Positions 4,524 to 16,403 of a DNA stretch of 16,483 nt are shown piece by piece. The DNA is taken from IMG/VR virus record IMGVR_UViG_3300012983_000313, positions 1 to 16,483 of that record, one strand, 5' to 3'. A model generated the notes under the pieces. The model had not been told where the DNA came from. It did not search any database and saw only the letters and a program-made list of their open reading frames with translations. The DNA comes from a virus. Taxonomy: Duplodnaviria; Heunggongvirae; Uroviricota; Caudoviricetes. The position numbers were made by a program, and so were the translations under genes. Positions within the stretch are counted from its first letter, which is position 1. Every line of letters starts with the position of its first letter.

Positions 4524-6988
4524 TGGCTATCAGTTGGATCCAGCCCAGCTTTGCCGGTGGTGAGATTGGACCGTCGTTGTACGGTCGTATCGACATGGCG
4601 AAGTACCAGGTGGCATTGCGCAAGTGCGATAACTTTATCGTGCGGCAGTATGGCGGCGTTGAGAATCGACCTGGTACGCGTTTTGTCGGTGCCGCCAAAT
4701 ACCCAAATCGGAAATGCCGCCTGATCCCGTTCCAGTTCTCGACGGTTCAGACTTATGCTCTGGAGTTCGGACACCAGTACATGCGCGTTATCAAAGATGG
4801 TGCGTTGGTGCTGAACAGCAGCAATGTTATTTATGAAATTGCCACGCCATATACTGAAGCCGATCTGTTCCGAATTAAATTCACGCAAAGCGCAGACGTG
4901 CTTACGCTGGTTCACCCGGCATACCCGCCGAAAGAGTTGCGCCGCTATGCGCATGACAACTGGCAACTGGTTGATGTGGTAACGAAGAACGGGCCATTTG
5001 AAGATATCAATATTGACGAGTCAGTGACGGTTTATGCCAGCGCCAGCACCGGGACAATTACGTTAACGGCAAGCGCCTCTATTTTTGGCGCGGAGCAGGT
5101 AGGCAAATTGTTCTATCTGGAACAGCCTGCAGTGGATTCTGTGCCGGTATGGGAAACCAGTAAGAGTACGTCGATTGGCGATATTCGCCGTGCAGACAGT
5201 AACTACTATCGCGCCGTTACAGCAGGCAAAACAGGTACTTTGCGCCCTTCGCATACAGAAGGCACATCATGGGATGGCTGGGGCGGATCCGGTGATGATG
5301 ATACTGGCATTGAGTGGGAATATCTGCACAGTGGTTTTGGCATTGCCCGTATCACTGCTGCAAATGGAACTACTGCAACTGCCGAGGTGATTTCCTATAT
5401 CCCTTCGCAGGTAGTTGGCGAGGATAATGCCAGCTATAAATGGGCTAAATATGCCTGGAACAGTGTTAATGGTTATCCTGGCACTGTTGTTTATTATCAA
5501 CAACGTCTTTACTTCGCCGCATCGACTGCGTTCCCTCAGACTATCTGGGCCAGCCGTACTGGGGATTATAAGGATTTTGGCAAAAGCAATCCTACGCAGG
5601 ATGATGACAGAATTATCTACACCTATGCCGGGCGTCAGGTTAATGAGATCCGTCACCTGATTGATGTTGGTTCGCTGGTGGCGCTGACTTCCGGAGGTGA
5701 GTACGTCATCACCGGCGACCAGAACAAAGTGTTAACCCCATCATCATTTGCATTCAGCTCTCAGGGATCAAATGGCTCAAGCAACGTCCCGCCAATTGCC
5801 GTGGCGAATATTGCTTTGTTCGTCCAGGAGAAAGGCAGCGTTGTCCGTGATCTGGCCTACTCATTCGATGTTGACGGCTATCAGGGGAACGACCTGACCA
5901 TCCTTGCCAATCATCTTTTTCAGAAGCACAGCATTGTTGACTGGTGCTTCTCGATTGTCCCTTACTCCAGCGCCTTCTGCATTCGTGATGACGGTAAATT
6001 ACTGGTGATGACCTATTTGCGTGATCAGCAGGTTTTTGCATGGGCACCACAATCCAGTACCGGAAAATATGAAAGCACATGCAGTATCAGCGAAGGCAAT
6101 GAAGATGCGGTGTATTTCGTCGTTAACCGAACCGTTAACGGGCAAACAGTGAGATACATCGAGCGACTGTCCAGCCGTTTATTTACCAGCGATGAAGATG
6201 CTTTCTTTGTTGATTCTGGCCTTAGCTATGATGGAAGAAATACGTCTGACAGAACGATGATCATCACTGGTGGTTCTGGCGAATGGGATTACCGCGCGGA
6301 ATATACAATCAGTGTTTCTGGTGGTGCGTACTTCACCAGTAGTGATGTCGGTGCTCAACTACAGTTCCCTTATACCGGAACTGATCCTGGCGATGAAGTG
6401 TCAAAAGAATTACGTTGCGACATCATTTCTGTAACCAGCAATACCGCTGTAGTGGTTCGTGCTAACAGGAACGTCCCGCCATCCCTCAGGAATGTGGCCA
6501 CCACGAACTGGCAGATGGCGCGCCGGACATTTGGCGGTTTGTCTCATCTTGAAGGTCAGACCGTAAACATCCTCTCTGATGCGAACGTGGAACCACAGAA
6601 AGTGGTTTCCGGAGGTGCCGTCACGCTGGAATCACCTGGGGCTGTAGTGCACATCGGCCTGCCAATAACTGCTGAATTCGAAACACTGGATATCAACATT
6701 AACGGACAGGAAACGCTGCTGGACAAAAAACAGGTGATCCCGTCCGTTACTCTGGTTGTGAATGCCAGTCGCGGCATCTTGGCTACTACGCCCGGCGGTA
6801 AATGGTACGAATATCCACAGCGTGAATTCGAGTTCTACGATGATCCTGTTGATGACGCTACCGGAAAAGTAGAAGTGAAACTGGACAGTAACTGGGGCAA
6901 AAACGGACGTGTAAGAATCCGTCAGCTTGACCCGTTGCCGCTGTCTGTTCTTGCCGTTATTCCTCGCCTTACTGTTGGGGGATTCTGA
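4523..6988 (+). CDS. Tail tubular protein B / nozzle (T7 gp12-like)
   Basis: 821 aa against 794 aa for T7 gp12. Sits in the gp11-gp12 synteny position. N-terminal GG-x-I...RPGT pattern is loosely like gp12. Start ATG 4523 overlaps the upstream stop; GAGG lies 8 nt upstream. Confidence 0.6.
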   Translation: MAISWIQPSFAGGEIGPSLYGRIDMAKYQVALRKCDNFIVRQYGGVENRPGTRFVGAAKYPNRKCRLIPFQFSTVQTYALEFGHQYMRVIKDGALVLNSSNVIYEIATPYTEADLFRIKFTQSADVLTLVHPAYPPKELRRYAHDNWQLVDVVTKNGPFEDINIDESVTVYASASTGTITLTASASIFGAEQVGKLFYLEQPAVDSVPVWETSKSTSIGDIRRADSNYYRAVTAGKTGTLRPSHTEGTSWDGWGGSGDDDTGIEWEYLHSGFGIARITAANGTTATAEVISYIPSQVVGEDNASYKWAKYAWNSVNGYPGTVVYYQQRLYFAASTAFPQTIWASRTGDYKDFGKSNPTQDDDRIIYTYAGRQVNEIRHLIDVGSLVALTSGGEYVITGDQNKVLTPSSFAFSSQGSNGSSNVPPIAVANIALFVQEKGSVVRDLAYSFDVDGYQGNDLTILANHLFQKHSIVDWCFSIVPYSSAFCIRDDGKLLVMTYLRDQQVFAWAPQSSTGKYESTCSISEGNEDAVYFVVNRTVNGQTVRYIERLSSRLFTSDEDAFFVDSGLSYDGRNTSDRTMIITGGSGEWDYRAEYTISVSGGAYFTSSDVGAQLQFPYTGTDPGDEVSKELRCDIISVTSNTAVVVRANRNVPPSLRNVATTNWQMARRTFGGLSHLEGQTVNILSDANVEPQKVVSGGAVTLESPGAVVHIGLPITAEFETLDININGQETLLDKKQVIPSVTLVVNASRGILATTPGGKWYEYPQREFEFYDDPVDDATGKVEVKLDSNWGKNGRVRIRQLDPLPLSVLAVIPRLTVGGF

Positions 6989-12320: not shown

Positions 12321-14795
12321 ATGAGACAGGAATGTATACAAGCGGTCCAGCAGGCGGCGCAGCGCACGTTAACGGCGCGAGAAATACAGAACATTGAAGA
12401 CCGCATTTATCGAAATATGCGCTCCATTGCTCGTGATGACCCGATGTCGTGGAGACAACTTTCCGAATCAGAGCGGCTATATCGTGCAGCACAATTGGCA
12501 TCTGAAGAATTACAGCGAGAAGCGGCATTAAAGAAACGTCGTGTGGCCATCACTATAGCCGCACGTCAGAGATTGGATAAATTTATCAATAGCTATCAAG
12601 GGGCTGATGGGAAACTTGGCGCTCTTAACCGTACTATTGCTTTTAATGCAGACGGTAAATCGAATTTCCTCTCTGTTGAGTCCAGAACAAAAGCCACTCG
12701 TGATTATGCATTGAGTCAATTGCAGGAGGCATTCGAAGCAGTTGATCCTCGCTTTTTTGGTCTGTTTGAAGATGAAGCGGGCGTACGTGACCTGGTATAT
12801 GAAATGCGAGGGCAAAATACTGGCAATGCTAAAGCAAGAAAAGGTGCTAAGGCGTGGAGAGAAGTGACAGATCTACTGCGCCGCCGGTTTAATGATGCTG
12901 GTGGGGACATTGGCTATCTCGAAAACTGGGGGATCCCTCAACATCATTCTATGGAAAAGGTTGGGGCGGTATCAAAGGATAAGTGGGTTAGCGATGTTAT
13001 AGGTAAGCTGGATCGCAAATATTATATCCGAGCCGATGGACAACTGATGAATGATGCCGAGTTGTCTGCATTTCTTGGAGAGGCTTATAACACGATCGCT
13101 ACTGGTGGGCTGAATAAGCTTACTGATACCGGAATGCGAATTTCCGGCGCACGTGCTAACCGTGGTAATGCATCACGACAGATACATTTCAAAGATGCAG
13201 ATTCCTATCTGCAATATCAGCAACTTTATGGCGATCGCTCTCTATGGGAAATCATGGTCGGTCACCTGGAAGGTATCAGTAAAGATATTGCACTGGTGGA
13301 AACATATGGCACAAACCCCGATCATGTTTTCCGCTCTCTTCTTGATCAGGTGAAGGCAGAAACGGCAACAGCTAACCCGAGTAAAACCGGTAAAGTCGAG
13401 CGGCTGGCGAACAACACAGAGAATCTGTACAACTTTATTTCCGGAAAGACACAGCCTGTAGCGAATCCGCACATCGCGCGATGGTCTGACAATATCCGCA
13501 ACTGGCTGGTTGCCAGCAGACTCGGATCCGCGTTGCTATCATCGTTCTCTGATCTTGGAACCATGTATCTGTCTGCGAAGGTGACCAACCTTCCAATGAA
13601 CCAGTTATTCCGCAACCAGCTTGAAGCTATGGACCCAACGAACCGTACAGAACTTGCGCGGGCGCGCCGCGCTGGTCTGGCGATGGAATCTCTACTTGGC
13701 AGCGTTAACCGCTGGGCGATGGATAATATGGGGCCGTCAGTGTCTCGTTGGGCGGCAACGGCTGTAATGCGTGCCAGTGGGCTTACAGCATGGTCAGATG
13801 CGCACAAGCGCGCCTATGGCGTAACCATGATGGGAAGCATGGGGGAAGTAGTGTCACGGACACCAGACCTTCGTAGCCTCGATGACTCTGATTTTCGTAT
13901 CCTGAAAAGCAAAGGGATTACTGACACAGACTGGAGCGTATGGAAGCTGGCGCAACAGGAGGACTGGGGGAACGGTAATAATACGATGCTGACACCGGAA
14001 AGCATTATGCGTATCCCTGATTCAGCAGTTAAACATCTTGGTGAGCCTGAACGCGTGAAATTTGAGGCAATGCGTAAACTGCTCGGTGCCGTAACTGAAG
14101 AAGTTGATATGGCTGTTATTACACCGGGAGCACGTGAGCAACTGATAACCGGTTCTGGTATTCAGCGTGGAACATGGAAAGGTGAATTAACGAGAAGTGT
14201 TTTCCTGTTTAAATCGTTCCCTATCTCGGTGGTTATGCGCCACTGGTCACGCGCTATGGGGATGCCGTCTGCTGGTGGGCGTGCGGCATATATTGCGACG
14301 TTTATTGCCAGTACGACCATTCTTGGCGCTTTGTCGCAGCAACTTAACGACCTTGCGTCTGGTCGGAATCCTCGAGATATGACAGGAGAAGATGCCGCAA
14401 AATTCTGGCTTGGTGCTCTACTGAAAGGTGGTGGTCTTGGCCTTTACGGTGACTTTTTATTGTCAGATCACACTAGGTACGGAAGCGGCGCGCTGGCGTC
14501 GATGCTTGGCCCGGTAGCTGGTCTGGTTGATGACGTTGTGAAGATTGCTCAGGGCATACCGTTAAATGCTGTGGAGGGGAAGAATGAGCAGACTGGTGGT
14601 GATCTGGTGAAGCTGGGGAAAGGTTTGATGCCAGGTGCGAATCTCTGGTACTTAAAGGCGGCTCTCGATCATATGATCTTTAACCAGATGCAGGAGTATT
14701 TTTCACCAGGCTATTTGCGTAAAATGGAGCAACGTTCGAAGAAAGAGTTTAATCAGACATACTGGTGGCGACCTCAGGATGTCACTCCGCAATAA
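12321..14795 (+). CDS. Large internal virion protein (gp16-position, 824 aa)
   Basis: ATG 12321 with GAGAGG about 9 nt upstream. Last gene of the rightward operon, stop TAA 14793-14795. No repeats or beta-helix signature that would suggest a tail fibre or tailspike. Confidence 0.5.
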   Translation: MRQECIQAVQQAAQRTLTAREIQNIEDRIYRNMRSIARDDPMSWRQLSESERLYRAAQLASEELQREAALKKRRVAITIAARQRLDKFINSYQGADGKLGALNRTIAFNADGKSNFLSVESRTKATRDYALSQLQEAFEAVDPRFFGLFEDEAGVRDLVYEMRGQNTGNAKARKGAKAWREVTDLLRRRFNDAGGDIGYLENWGIPQHHSMEKVGAVSKDKWVSDVIGKLDRKYYIRADGQLMNDAELSAFLGEAYNTIATGGLNKLTDTGMRISGARANRGNASRQIHFKDADSYLQYQQLYGDRSLWEIMVGHLEGISKDIALVETYGTNPDHVFRSLLDQVKAETATANPSKTGKVERLANNTENLYNFISGKTQPVANPHIARWSDNIRNWLVASRLGSALLSSFSDLGTMYLSAKVTNLPMNQLFRNQLEAMDPTNRTELARARRAGLAMESLLGSVNRWAMDNMGPSVSRWAATAVMRASGLTAWSDAHKRAYGVTMMGSMGEVVSRTPDLRSLDDSDFRILKSKGITDTDWSVWKLAQQEDWGNGNNTMLTPESIMRIPDSAVKHLGEPERVKFEAMRKLLGAVTEEVDMAVITPGAREQLITGSGIQRGTWKGELTRSVFLFKSFPISVVMRHWSRAMGMPSAGGRAAYIATFIASTTILGALSQQLNDLASGRNPRDMTGEDAAKFWLGALLKGGGLGLYGDFLLSDHTRYGSGALASMLGPVAGLVDDVVKIAQGIPLNAVEGKNEQTGGDLVKLGKGLMPGANLWYLKAALDHMIFNQMQEYFSPGYLRKMEQRSKKEFNQTYWWRPQDVTPQ

Positions 14796-14990
14796 GGAAG
14801 TGTTTTGTTTTTAATTATTTTGAGTGTGATAATTTCTGGTGGGTTGTTATTTATTGACCGCTACAAATATTTTCTTAACCCTCAGACTCAAGCTATTTGC
14901 TGGTTCATCTTTGTTGTGCAGGGAATAGTTCTTGTTGCAAGCCTTATTGAGGGGAGGCCTCTGATTTTTACTGGGTAAATAGGTGACTAC

Positions 14991-15287
14991 ATGCAAGCGA
15001 TAGGATTCATTGTTTATATCGTCGTTGGTCTTTTTCAGTTGGCAGCAATTATGGCTGGGCTTGAATCATGGTGGGGATTGCACTGGATAATTGCAGCCCC
15101 CATTGCTTTCATCGTGAGCTATATTCCATTTGTTGGAGCGATTGTTGGTATGGTTGGCGCTGTGGATGTATGGCGGTGGGAGTGGTGGCAGGCTGGCCTT
15201 CTCTTCTTTGGTGGGATCATCTTTGTTATTGTCTGCGGTGGAATGTCATCATTTTTCGAATGGCTATCATTCAGAAAAGGGACGTGA
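14991..15287 (+). CDS. Small integral membrane protein (98 aa, about 3 TM helices, Trp-rich); moron-like, possible holin or exclusion-type protein
   Basis: AGGTGA (14981-14986) precedes ATG 14991. Three long hydrophobic segments (residues about 4-24, 31-58, 66-85) and a WRWEWWQ motif. Separated from the phage operon by a 195-bp AT-rich gap and followed by its own intrinsic terminator. Confidence 0.5.
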   Translation: MQAIGFIVYIVVGLFQLAAIMAGLESWWGLHWIIAAPIAFIVSYIPFVGAIVGMVGAVDVWRWEWWQAGLLFFGGIIFVIVCGGMSSFFEWLSFRKGT

Positions 15288-15295
15288 CATGTCAC

Positions 15296-15321
15296 AGGCC
15301 GCTTTCGCGGCCTTGTTTTTA
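15296..15321 (+). terminator. Rho-independent terminator of the membrane-protein transcript
   Basis: Stem AGGCCGC (15296-15302), loop TTTC, stem GCGGCCT (15307-15313), then TGTTTTTAA. Begins 9 nt after the stop codon. Confidence 0.6.
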
Positions 15322-15480
15322 ACGAATGCCACCGCCGCCCGGGCGGGAATCCGCAGAACGCCCACCGCAGCGGGAGCCGTCAGCGGCAGTATCGCTGTCG
15401 TGCTGACAACGACCGGCAAAGGCCTGAGTTGAAGCTACCAGAGACAACAAAACGAACAGTGCAGCAAATGCTTTTTTCAT
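15319..15480 (-). CDS. Putative small secreted peptide (53 aa) with an N-terminal signal-peptide-like segment
   Basis: Minus-strand ATG at 15480: MKKAFAALFVLLSLVASTQAFA then a 31-aa Cys-containing tail, stop TAA at 15321-15319. Weak SD (GGAAA). Lies between two convergent terminators. It could be non-coding; no homology recalled. Confidence 0.25.
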   Translation of the reverse strand: MKKAFAALFVLLSLVASTQAFAGRCQHDSDTAADGSRCGGRSADSRPGGGGIR

Positions 15481-15492
15481 TTGAAATTTCCA

Positions 15493-15520
15493 TCTATAAG
15501 CCACCTCAATGTGGCGTCAA
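15493..15520 (-). promoter_or_regulatory. Candidate sigma70-type promoter for the small minus-strand ORF/RNA
   Basis: On the minus strand: -35 TTGACG (+15520..15515), 16-nt spacer containing the inverted repeat CCACATTGAGGTGG, -10 TATAGA (+15498..15493). The predicted start would give an almost leaderless mRNA, which weakens either the promoter or the ORF call. Confidence 0.25.
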
Positions 15521-15551
15521 TGAGTGTAGCACTGACTTTTGTTTCGTCCAC

Positions 15552-15572
15552 AAAAAAGCCCGCAGTGCGGGC
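15552..15572 (-). terminator. Rho-independent terminator of the minus-strand two-gene cassette
   Basis: On the minus strand: GCCCGC-ACU-GCGGGC perfect 6-bp GC stem followed by UUUUUUGUGG (A-tract 15552-15557 on the + strand). Starts at the TAG stop of the 181-aa gene. Confidence 0.65.
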
Positions 15573-16117
15573 TATTCCTTCCATTTATCAGAAAAAAGAT
15601 CTTCTTCTAAAGGCATTGGTTTTGTTTTTGTTTTCTCAAAGAATTGATAACTGATAGTGATTGCTGCCTCTTTAAACTCTTCTTGCTCAGTTATGTTGTG
15701 AGCATCTGCGTCAACAAAAAACATAACCAGCGCATCACGATTGTGATTTACCGAATAAACTAAAAAGCAATCACTTGTTGGTATGCATTTTACTTGTACA
15801 GACGCTATATTTTTCCATGCATCCCAGGATGATTTTTTACCAGTGTGTTTTTTATCACTATCTTCTGGAATATAGTCTTGGTTATCGACATGAGTATGCC
15901 TGACATTTAGTTTAAGCATTTCTGTCGGACGAGCAAATGCGGCATCTTTACCAAGAGATGGATGGTATCCCGTTTTCCAATACTGGGTAAATGCATCAGA
16001 TACTTTCTTCAGCTCAAGATCAGATGCACAAAGGGCCGAGAAATTTTGCGTATGCAATACTCGACCCTTATATCTGACAATTTGATTTTTATCATTCTGC
16101 GACGCAGACAAACTCAT
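15572..16117 (-). CDS. Hypothetical cargo protein (181 aa); candidate toxin or defence effector
   Basis: Minus-strand ATG at 16117 preceded by AAGGA, 7 nt upstream; the ORF track's longer version from 16144 lacks an SD. AT-rich: about 36% GC in a hand-counted 120-nt sample, against about 50% in a sample of the phage genes. Terminated by a strong intrinsic terminator. C-terminal segment SDCFLVYSVNHNRDALVMFFVDADAH is loosely reminiscent of RelE/ParE-type toxin cores, unconfirmed. Confidence 0.55.
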   Translation of the reverse strand: MSLSASQNDKNQIVRYKGRVLHTQNFSALCASDLELKKVSDAFTQYWKTGYHPSLGKDAAFARPTEMLKLNVRHTHVDNQDYIPEDSDKKHTGKKSSWDAWKNIASVQVKCIPTSDCFLVYSVNHNRDALVMFFVDADAHNITEQEEFKEAAITISYQFFEKTKTKPMPLEEDLFSDKWKE

Positions 16118-16271
16118 AATTTTCCTTATTGTTACGAGAATCAAAGAAAGCGCTGGATACGCGACTTGCGTGATCTTTTGTCATAGTAACTTTTACGTAC
16201 TCTACGCTTCCATTGAAAGAACGTCTTGCGGCAGCTTGCGCTCTACGCATCTGCAATTTTTCGTTTCGCAT
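16092..16271 (-). CDS. Small basic protein (59 aa) overlapping the start of the 181-aa gene; candidate antitoxin or regulator
   Basis: Minus-strand ATG at 16271 preceded by GAGGT (5-6 nt spacer). Translates to MRNEKLQMRRAQAAARRSFNGSVEYVKVTMTKDHASRVSSAFFDSRNNKENYEFVCVAE. Its 3' end overlaps the downstream gene by 26 nt out of frame. Below the ORF-track length cutoff, so not listed there. Confidence 0.35.
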   Translation of the reverse strand: MRNEKLQMRRAQAAARRSFNGSVEYVKVTMTKDHASRVSSAFFDSRNNKENYEFVCVAE

Positions 16272-16387
16272 GACATTACCTCATATCTCATAAGTTCATT
16301 ACACGGATTAATAAAAATGAAACCAATCCGTTTACCCTTGAGGTAATAGTACGCTATTCACCTGCAATCTGTACAGAATTATTTAAA

Positions 16388-16403
16388 GGCACATCCCTGT
16401 GCC
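16388..16403 (-). terminator. Terminator-like hairpin after a minus-strand gene that ends at 16412
   Basis: GGCACA-TCCC-TGTGCC (6-bp stem). On the minus strand it is followed by UUUAAAUAAUU, a weak U-tract. Lies 8 nt downstream of the minus-strand stop. Confidence 0.3.

Follow-up and report, generated by a model that had tools for sequence, protein, structure and literature searches.

Late region of the window

The window (the whole 16,483-nt stretch of DNA analysed here) was matched by DNA searches to epsilon15/phiV10-like temperate podoviruses (Uetakevirus) and to their E. coli prophages. As judged by these matches, it is the late region of an E. coli prophage of this type. A run of tightly coupled late genes was closed by the last internal virion (ejection) protein gene, whose 824-aa product was 99% identical to phiV10 p20 and epsilon15 gp17-like. 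Its end at position 14795 confirmed where a first, sequence-only reading had let the last virion gene of the late operon stop. In related prophages the same late run included a T7_gp14-like protein and an SLT-domain protein, which identifies the run as the ejection (internal virion) protein set.

Downstream of this gene the anatomy was, in order: a 9-nt gap, a gene for a 57-aa protein (ORF57), a 12-nt gap, a gene for a 98-aa protein (ORF98), and the late-operon terminator (Table 1). A near-identical E. coli prophage (L001) continued downstream with a small convergent gene, a YafO-family toxin gene, a Bro-N antirepressor gene, a tailspike gene, and a lysis cassette.

Table 1. Features at and beyond the end of the late operon, with positions in the window.
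Feature	Position	Strand	Basis or remark
Last internal virion/ejection-protein gene, 824 aa	12321..14795	+	phrog_684, E = 0, full length
Shine-Dalgarno AAGGAAG	14794..14800	+	Sequence; overlaps gp17-like stop codon; 4 nt upstream of ORF57 start
ORF57, 57-aa two-helix membrane protein gene	14805..14978	+	TTG start; dN/dS, conservation
Shine-Dalgarno-like AGGTGA for ORF98	14981..14986	+	Sequence; in 12-nt spacer after ORF57 stop
ORF98, 98-aa Trp-rich three-helix membrane protein gene (phrog_3075 family)	14991..15287	+	ATG start; profile, dN/dS, AF2
Late-operon intrinsic terminator	15296..15321	+	Stem-loop 15296-15313 plus T-tract
Convergent 53-aa signal-peptide protein gene	15319..15480	-	phrog_14503 'membrane associated protein, moron'; annotated in L001
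Own terminator of YafO-like pair	15557-15573	-	
YafO-family toxin-like gene	15572-16144	-	Pfam YafO_toxin E 1.2e-5; phrog_1651
59-aa gene preceding YafO-like gene	16092-16271	-	phrog_6685; unannotated in RefSeq relative

A membrane protein gene upstream of ORF98

The interval between the ejection gene and ORF98 (14796-14990) had been described from the sequence alone as a 195-bp AT-rich non-coding gap. The AT-richness stood (37.4% GC vs 50.4% in the late genes). The non-coding status did not, given the dN/dS of ORF57, its Shine-Dalgarno sequence, and the presence of p21 in the same slot of phiV10. ORF57 started 10 nt past the gp17-like stop codon and ended 12 nt before the ATG of ORF98. Compared with Klebsiella-type relatives at about 75% DNA identity, dN/dS was 0.18-0.24 in the ORF57 frame vs 1.3-1.9 in the other two frames. 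Those two frames contained three to six stops across ORF57; the ORF57 frame itself stayed open in the relatives carrying it. Among the fetched loci that carry ORF57, protein identity was 73-98%.

In phiV10, identity to the window reached position 14798 and p21 began equally far from the gp17-like stop. On positional grounds, the AAGGAAG Shine-Dalgarno is the sequence that serves whichever gene occupies the slot. The annotated p21 (46 aa, two transmembrane (TM) helices) resembled ORF57 in slot, Shine-Dalgarno and two-TM hairpin architecture, but the two proteins had no significant sequence similarity (E 1.9). Its counterpart in the epsilon15 group, the product after gp17, was labelled 'putative integral membrane protein'.

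The first description took the gap to be a regulatory non-coding spacer, in which case ORF57 would be a chance ORF. Its small size and TTG start could be read this way, as could its lack of annotation in the RefSeq and phage records inspected and its marginal PHROG match (E 0.064). Against it stand the contrast between the ORF57 frame and the other, stop-interrupted frames (dN/dS > 1.3), and the conservation of both the Shine-Dalgarno and the start position. In addition, the other lineages with an occupied slot held a tightly packed ORF there, and an Rfam scan of the gap matched no family. A chance ORF is thus hardly credible. The recognition of ORF57 corrects the annotation of the records examined, from which a conserved 57-aa membrane protein gene was missing.

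Searches of ORF57 against Pfam, NCBIfam and PADLOC gave nothing significant; in PADLOC, no match at E up to 1 was found for ORF57, ORF98 or the three neighboring minus-strand proteins. In phiv142-3 (L098, 7094-7450) the ORF98 homologue was annotated as a 118-aa protein (Orf12) with its start inside the ORF57 region. This start is probably over-extended and hides ORF57.

ORF98 and its protein family

The ORF98 protein contained eight Trp residues, and its residues 61-67 formed the motif WRWEWWQ. Kyte-Doolittle analysis gave hydrophobic stretches at residues 1-25, 28-61, and 65-90. An AlphaFold2 (AF2) model built from a 28-sequence alignment (mean pLDDT 90.4) placed helices at 2-28, 32-42+46-59 (with a kink at the invariant Pro46), and 65-97. 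The 98-aa protein with three hydrophobic helices and a WRWEWWQ motif noted in the sequence-only reading was thus borne out by the ORF, the hydropathy profile and the structural model. The positive-inside rule predicts a cytoplasmic location for the basic C-terminus (FRKGT) and a periplasmic one for the N-terminus. Invariant residues included G13, Q16, A19, G29, P46, G49, G53, G56, A57, W63, A68, and L71-F72-F73. The dN/dS of 0.02-0.03 indicates that ORF98 is under very strong purifying selection.

ORF98 was a full-length member of phrog_3075 (residues 1-98 aligned to profile positions 1-98 of 98, E 3.8e-54), a family absent from Pfam, NCBIfam and PADLOC. Searches of ORF98 against these three databases gave nothing significant. 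A match to LrgA (E 0.092) fell below the cutoff and was put down to hydrophobic composition. A sequence profile search of the PDB returned a single chance match at E 5. The structure-based search that had been proposed for the protein produced no significant relative either, with the PDB and BFVD as targets of the fold searches.

A word-indexed search found 52 close homologues, and the named sources among them were Enterobacterales. With clusters defined at 50% identity, an exhaustive profile search put the wider family at 748 clusters for an E cutoff of 1e-3, and 324 were left when the cutoff was 1e-10. These were mostly stand-alone proteins of about 100 aa. Some members were fused to DUF805, RDD, MORN or zinc-ribbon domains and one consisted of four tandem copies; the fusion partners were set aside as a functional lead because they are themselves uncharacterised. 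All names carried over from the sources were 'hypothetical protein' with the exception of one automatic JGI label. Repeating the IMG/VR scan with a divergent alignment brought up essentially no loci beyond the E. coli and Klebsiella ones already found, and tblastn of the phage collection found ORF98 in only six records. A membrane-domain family of this extent that is uncurated and has no Pfam model offers a tractable place to look for an entry-exclusion or membrane function.

Terminator and promoter search

The strong intrinsic terminator reported after the 98-aa gene was real. Its stem comprised 7 bp, including six GC pairs, and was followed by TTGTTTTT. The fold had an energy of -16.5 kcal/mol (z -3.65), none of 200 shuffled sequences folded as well, and the terminator was unidirectional on the + strand. 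Its assignment as the gene's own terminator did not survive comparison with relatives. In phiV10, which lacks ORF98, an identical terminator (ACATGTCACAGGCCGCTTTCGCGGCCTTGTTTTTAACGAATGCC) directly followed p21. The whole cassette was carried by 205 of 5,426 complete E. coli genomes, and approximately 256 further complete E. coli genomes matched the query with coverage below 80%. All of the sampled matches in this lower-coverage set covered the terminator segment only, at 100% identity.

In the gap (14796-14990), a consensus scan found no site resembling a sigma-70 promoter with a score of 9 or more out of 12. Under relaxed settings, a weak extended -10 (TGtGATAAT, 14825-14833) appeared inside ORF57 and was absent from the Klebsiella alleles. 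Candidates from the relaxed scan were no denser than the AT-richness of the region predicts. Since there was no convincing promoter and the terminator was common to phiV10, which is without ORF98, the cassette is probably not a self-contained promoter-gene-terminator moron.

Exchange of the cassette and the variable slot

In phiV10, which lacks both ORF57 and ORF98, the gp17-like stop was followed by p21 and then by the shared terminator. Identity to the window broke at 14798 and resumed at 15283. The last ejection protein of another relative (L052) was about 26% identical to that of the window, yet the block 14976-15573 was 98.5% identical. Exchanged together with ORF98 were the 15 nt in front of it, the terminator behind it, and the convergent 53-aa gene with its signal peptide. 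Overall, ORF98 was 93-99% identical beside ejection proteins that were only 24-28% identical. The ORF98 allele did not follow the ejection-protein lineage (L065 compared with L003 and the window). The L065 ejection protein shared 88% identity with its Cronobacter prophage counterpart, and the L065 ORF98 had 93-97% identity to the E. coli/Klebsiella allele and only 58% to the Cronobacter one; in this case the allele might track the host. By these comparisons ORF98 is an accessory, horizontally exchanged gene. The accessory character implied in its first description as a moron therefore held, as it was absent from phiV10 and near-identical beside divergent ejection proteins.

The slot between the ejection gene and ORF98 contained six different membrane or secreted proteins across phages. 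Two-TM proteins occupied it in the window (ORF57, 57 aa), L076 (54 aa; 35% identical to ORF57, pairwise E 4e-7), L061 (103 aa), and L095 (112 aa). Signal-peptide proteins occupied it in L065 and L052 (123 aa), L097 (175 aa), and the Yersinia prophage L134 (147 aa, opposite strand). The slot was empty in Cronobacter and Kosakonia, where ORF98 started 2 nt past the ejection-protein stop (1-nt gap), and in Salmonella L006 (35-nt gap). Occupied slots held a tightly packed ORF with an envelope-targeted product that differed between phages. The end of the ejection operon in epsilon15-like prophages is thus a structured cargo site made up of a variable envelope-protein slot, a conserved ORF98 and a shared terminator.

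Genomic position of ORF98 homologues

An ORF98 homologue followed the last ejection gene in five ejection-protein lineages that were less than 30% identical: the window and L012; L065, L003 and L135; L095; L006; and L134. In the Yersinia prophage (L134), the opposite-strand gene stood between the homologue and the ejection operon. In a sixth case (L132/L133, 4023-7312) the homologue lay 360 nt downstream of an 872-aa SLT-domain protein. That element encoded a DUF927 primase, SSB, AlpA and an integrase, with Abi_2 or SocA_Panacea domain proteins nearby, and it could represent either a small prophage or a satellite.

Not all homologues were near virion genes. Those of L009-L011 had an integrase and Bro-N genes as neighbors and 185 nt of upstream sequence of their own, the Buttiauxella homologue (L017) adjoined umuDC and host genes, others lay alongside recombinase genes in Microvirga, and an Aeromonas homologue (L131) was flanked by the trp operon and hipBA. 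These occurrences indicate that the protein does not need the ejection proteins. In two alphaproteobacterial elements (L014, 6308-6646; L016, 6304-6594) the ORF98 homologue was followed by a small membrane protein gene. The small membrane proteins of both elements shared the motif LAKxPYGYYxxLRIV...NPxxP, and the two genes may form a conserved pair.

Interpretation of the ORF57-ORF98 cassette

ORF57 and ORF98 are probably exchangeable terminal cistrons of the ejection-protein late operon, with a SieA-like role as the function proposed for ORF98. They are two translationally packed, non-essential genes for small inner-membrane proteins, placed last in the operon. As the anatomy suggests, they would be transcribed by read-through from the late operon, and transcription would be stopped by the operon's conserved terminator, unlike in an autonomous moron. 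Time and again, recombination has brought ORF98 to the site directly behind the final ejection gene, in many temperate podoviruses that are divergent from one another. Against this reading stand the Yersinia prophage, where an opposite-strand gene parts the homologue from the ejection operon, the family members located away from virion genes, and the lack of a PADLOC match; the weak extended -10 within ORF57 may also allow some expression in the lysogen. The cassette is ordinary accessory membrane-protein cargo at the end of a late operon and not a new mechanism. Its points of interest are modest: a gene that annotation had passed over, the structured site for cargo, and a membrane-domain family that is widespread but uncurated and has conserved synteny to ejection genes.

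The sequence-only reading had called the locus a classical prophage moron. This description was apt for the accessory and exchanged character and the lower GC. It was not supported for the promoter-gene-terminator unit, as the gap supposed to bear the promoter is a coding gene packed against both neighbors, only 15 nt travel with ORF98, and the terminator is the operon's. Under the moron definition of Juhala and Hendrix, comparison with phiV10 showed an insertion between elements that are adjacent in that relative, and base composition deviated (36.8% GC in ORF57 and 46.5% in ORF98 vs 50.4% in the late genes). An own terminator was lacking, as the same sequence follows p21 in phiV10. Like lambdoid morons (lambda lom, HK97 gp15), the cassette adds envelope-protein genes of atypical base composition between neighbors; it differs from them in having no detected promoter, a pre-existing terminator, and translational packing into the operon. 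In lambda, lom is a gene co-oriented with the late operon that can still be expressed in the lysogen.

A classical autonomous moron, in which ORF98, alone or together with ORF57, would be driven by a promoter of its own while the prophage is repressed and would serve lysogenic conversion or exclusion, is unlikely. The lom precedent speaks for such a unit, together with the insertion relative to phiV10, the low GC of both genes, the weak extended -10 within ORF57, and the family members that stand alone next to an integrase with an upstream region of their own. The gap, however, held no promoter reaching the consensus threshold, the weak -10 was not conserved in Klebsiella alleles, and little upstream DNA moves with ORF98. 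The 1-nt gap to the ejection gene in Cronobacter and Kosakonia and the occurrence of the terminator in phages without ORF98 weigh in the same direction.

A lysis function would make ORF98 a holin, an antiholin or a lysis-timing protein, and it is very improbable. ORF98 has the small size, the TM helices (at least one being expected of a holin) and the charged C-terminus of a holin, as predicted from its sequence. Class I holins of the lambda S type are likewise about 100 aa long with three TM helices and a basic C-terminus, and the predicted N-out/C-in topology of ORF98 matches them. A GxxxGxxG motif and the sub-threshold LrgA match could be added on this side. The holin possibility was nevertheless not supported: Pfam at E up to 1 gave no holin family for ORF98, and the phage type has its own lysis cassette. 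That no endolysin adjoins the gene had been held against a lysis cassette from the start, and this argument was strengthened. No endolysin gene was found within the window, and L001 carried a separate, complete cassette about 4.7 kb downstream, past the Bro-N and tailspike genes, with Phage_holin_8, Phage_holin_3_7, a GH19 endolysin, and a spanin. Thus, unlike a class I holin, ORF98 had neither a family match nor an adjacent endolysin, and the phage type already has two holin-family genes. An hhalign comparison of ORF98 with the phage's own Phage_holin_8 protein gave a probability of 0.1%. Family members were also found in non-phage contexts and as domain fusions.

The placement of ORF98 could also reflect a partnership with the ejection proteins, either as a membrane chaperone or immunity factor that shields the producing cell against the membrane activity of its own ejection proteins or as a small hydrophobic component of the virion or ejectosome. 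In keeping with it, homologues in five divergent lineages strictly follow the last ejection gene, some of them with translational coupling, and one recurs downstream of the 872-aa SLT-domain protein in the primase/AlpA/integrase element. ORF98 is dispensable, however, given that phiV10 lacks it and tblastn of the phage collection found only six records. Its allele, moreover, did not co-vary with the ejection-protein lineage, and its family occurred in chromosomal contexts without virion genes. An ejection-protein partner is therefore improbable, if less so than a holin.

Functional leads for ORF98

The most plausible guess for ORF98, and a tentative one, is a SieA-like block of DNA entry. ORF98 would act at the inner membrane on the DNA-delivery step and so exclude superinfecting phages. 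This action would be analogous to, not homologous with, the blocking of the ejection-protein conduit by P22 SieA. SieA, with three predicted TM helices, sits in the inner membrane and blocks the gp16/gp20 conduit for DNA delivery (PMC10883804). The gene order in P22 was: ejection genes 7-20-16, sieA, the antirepressor region, the tailspike, and O-antigen conversion genes. The order here was: ejection genes, ORF57 and ORF98, the Bro-N antirepressor, and the tailspike, with the downstream part taken from L001. Superinfection exclusion is a reasonable lead because P22 sieA sits in this equivalent genomic neighborhood. Both proteins are predicted three-TM inner-membrane proteins, and both genes directly follow the last ejection gene, ahead of the antirepressor region and the tailspike; for ORF98 this adjacency to the last ejection gene extended to the homologues of five lineages.

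The two differed in several respects. There was no sequence similarity between them (BLASTP E 19), SieA is longer (162-164 aa vs 98 aa), and the SieA cytoplasmic motif FxRYPxEAxxFNK was absent from ORF98. Relative to ORF98, P22 sieA is encoded on the opposite strand, and it is driven by a promoter of its own. ORF98 also varied far less than the ejection proteins that would be its targets, in contrast to SieA types, which are less than 30% identical. The lack of similarity, the strand and promoter arrangement, the high conservation and the non-phage occurrence all argue against equating ORF98 with SieA.

A bolder reading, which we consider doubtful, would have ORF98 found a new, widespread inner-membrane class that gates or blocks the T7/epsilon15-type ejection conduit, with the slot in front of it as a hotspot of anti-phage cargo. 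If true, SieA-like exclusion would have been reached by an unrelated, conserved three-TM Trp-rich domain that is also present in cellular genomes, and the variable slot would be a place to find further envelope-level anti-phage cargo. Beyond the SieA-like, ejection-partner and lysis roles, the probability that is left goes to some other membrane function of ORF98.

Genes downstream of the late terminator

The convergent 53-aa protein combined a clear signal peptide (MKKAFAALFVLLSLVASTQAFA...) with a tail rich in Gly and Arg. Its gene converges on the late terminator and moved with ORF98, as part of block 14976-15573, to a phage whose ejection proteins are unrelated. Beyond it, on the way from the late terminator to the Bro-N antirepressor gene, the YafO-like gene and the 59-aa gene preceding it look like a toxin-antitoxin-like moron. 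The pair was absent from phiV10; other relatives carried HicAB (Cronobacter) or other genes at that site.

The work on phiv142-3 concerned orf6 and orf10, not Orf12, the ORF98 homologue, and Orf12 was not among the genes up-regulated in serum in its supplementary table S1 (PMC7724020). In phiv142-3 (L098), orf10 lay at 6498-6656, in the same variable region as about 15550-16400 of the window. It was reported to raise the serum resistance of avian pathogenic E. coli (PMC7724020), which makes the slot neighboring the cassette a documented lysogenic-conversion site.
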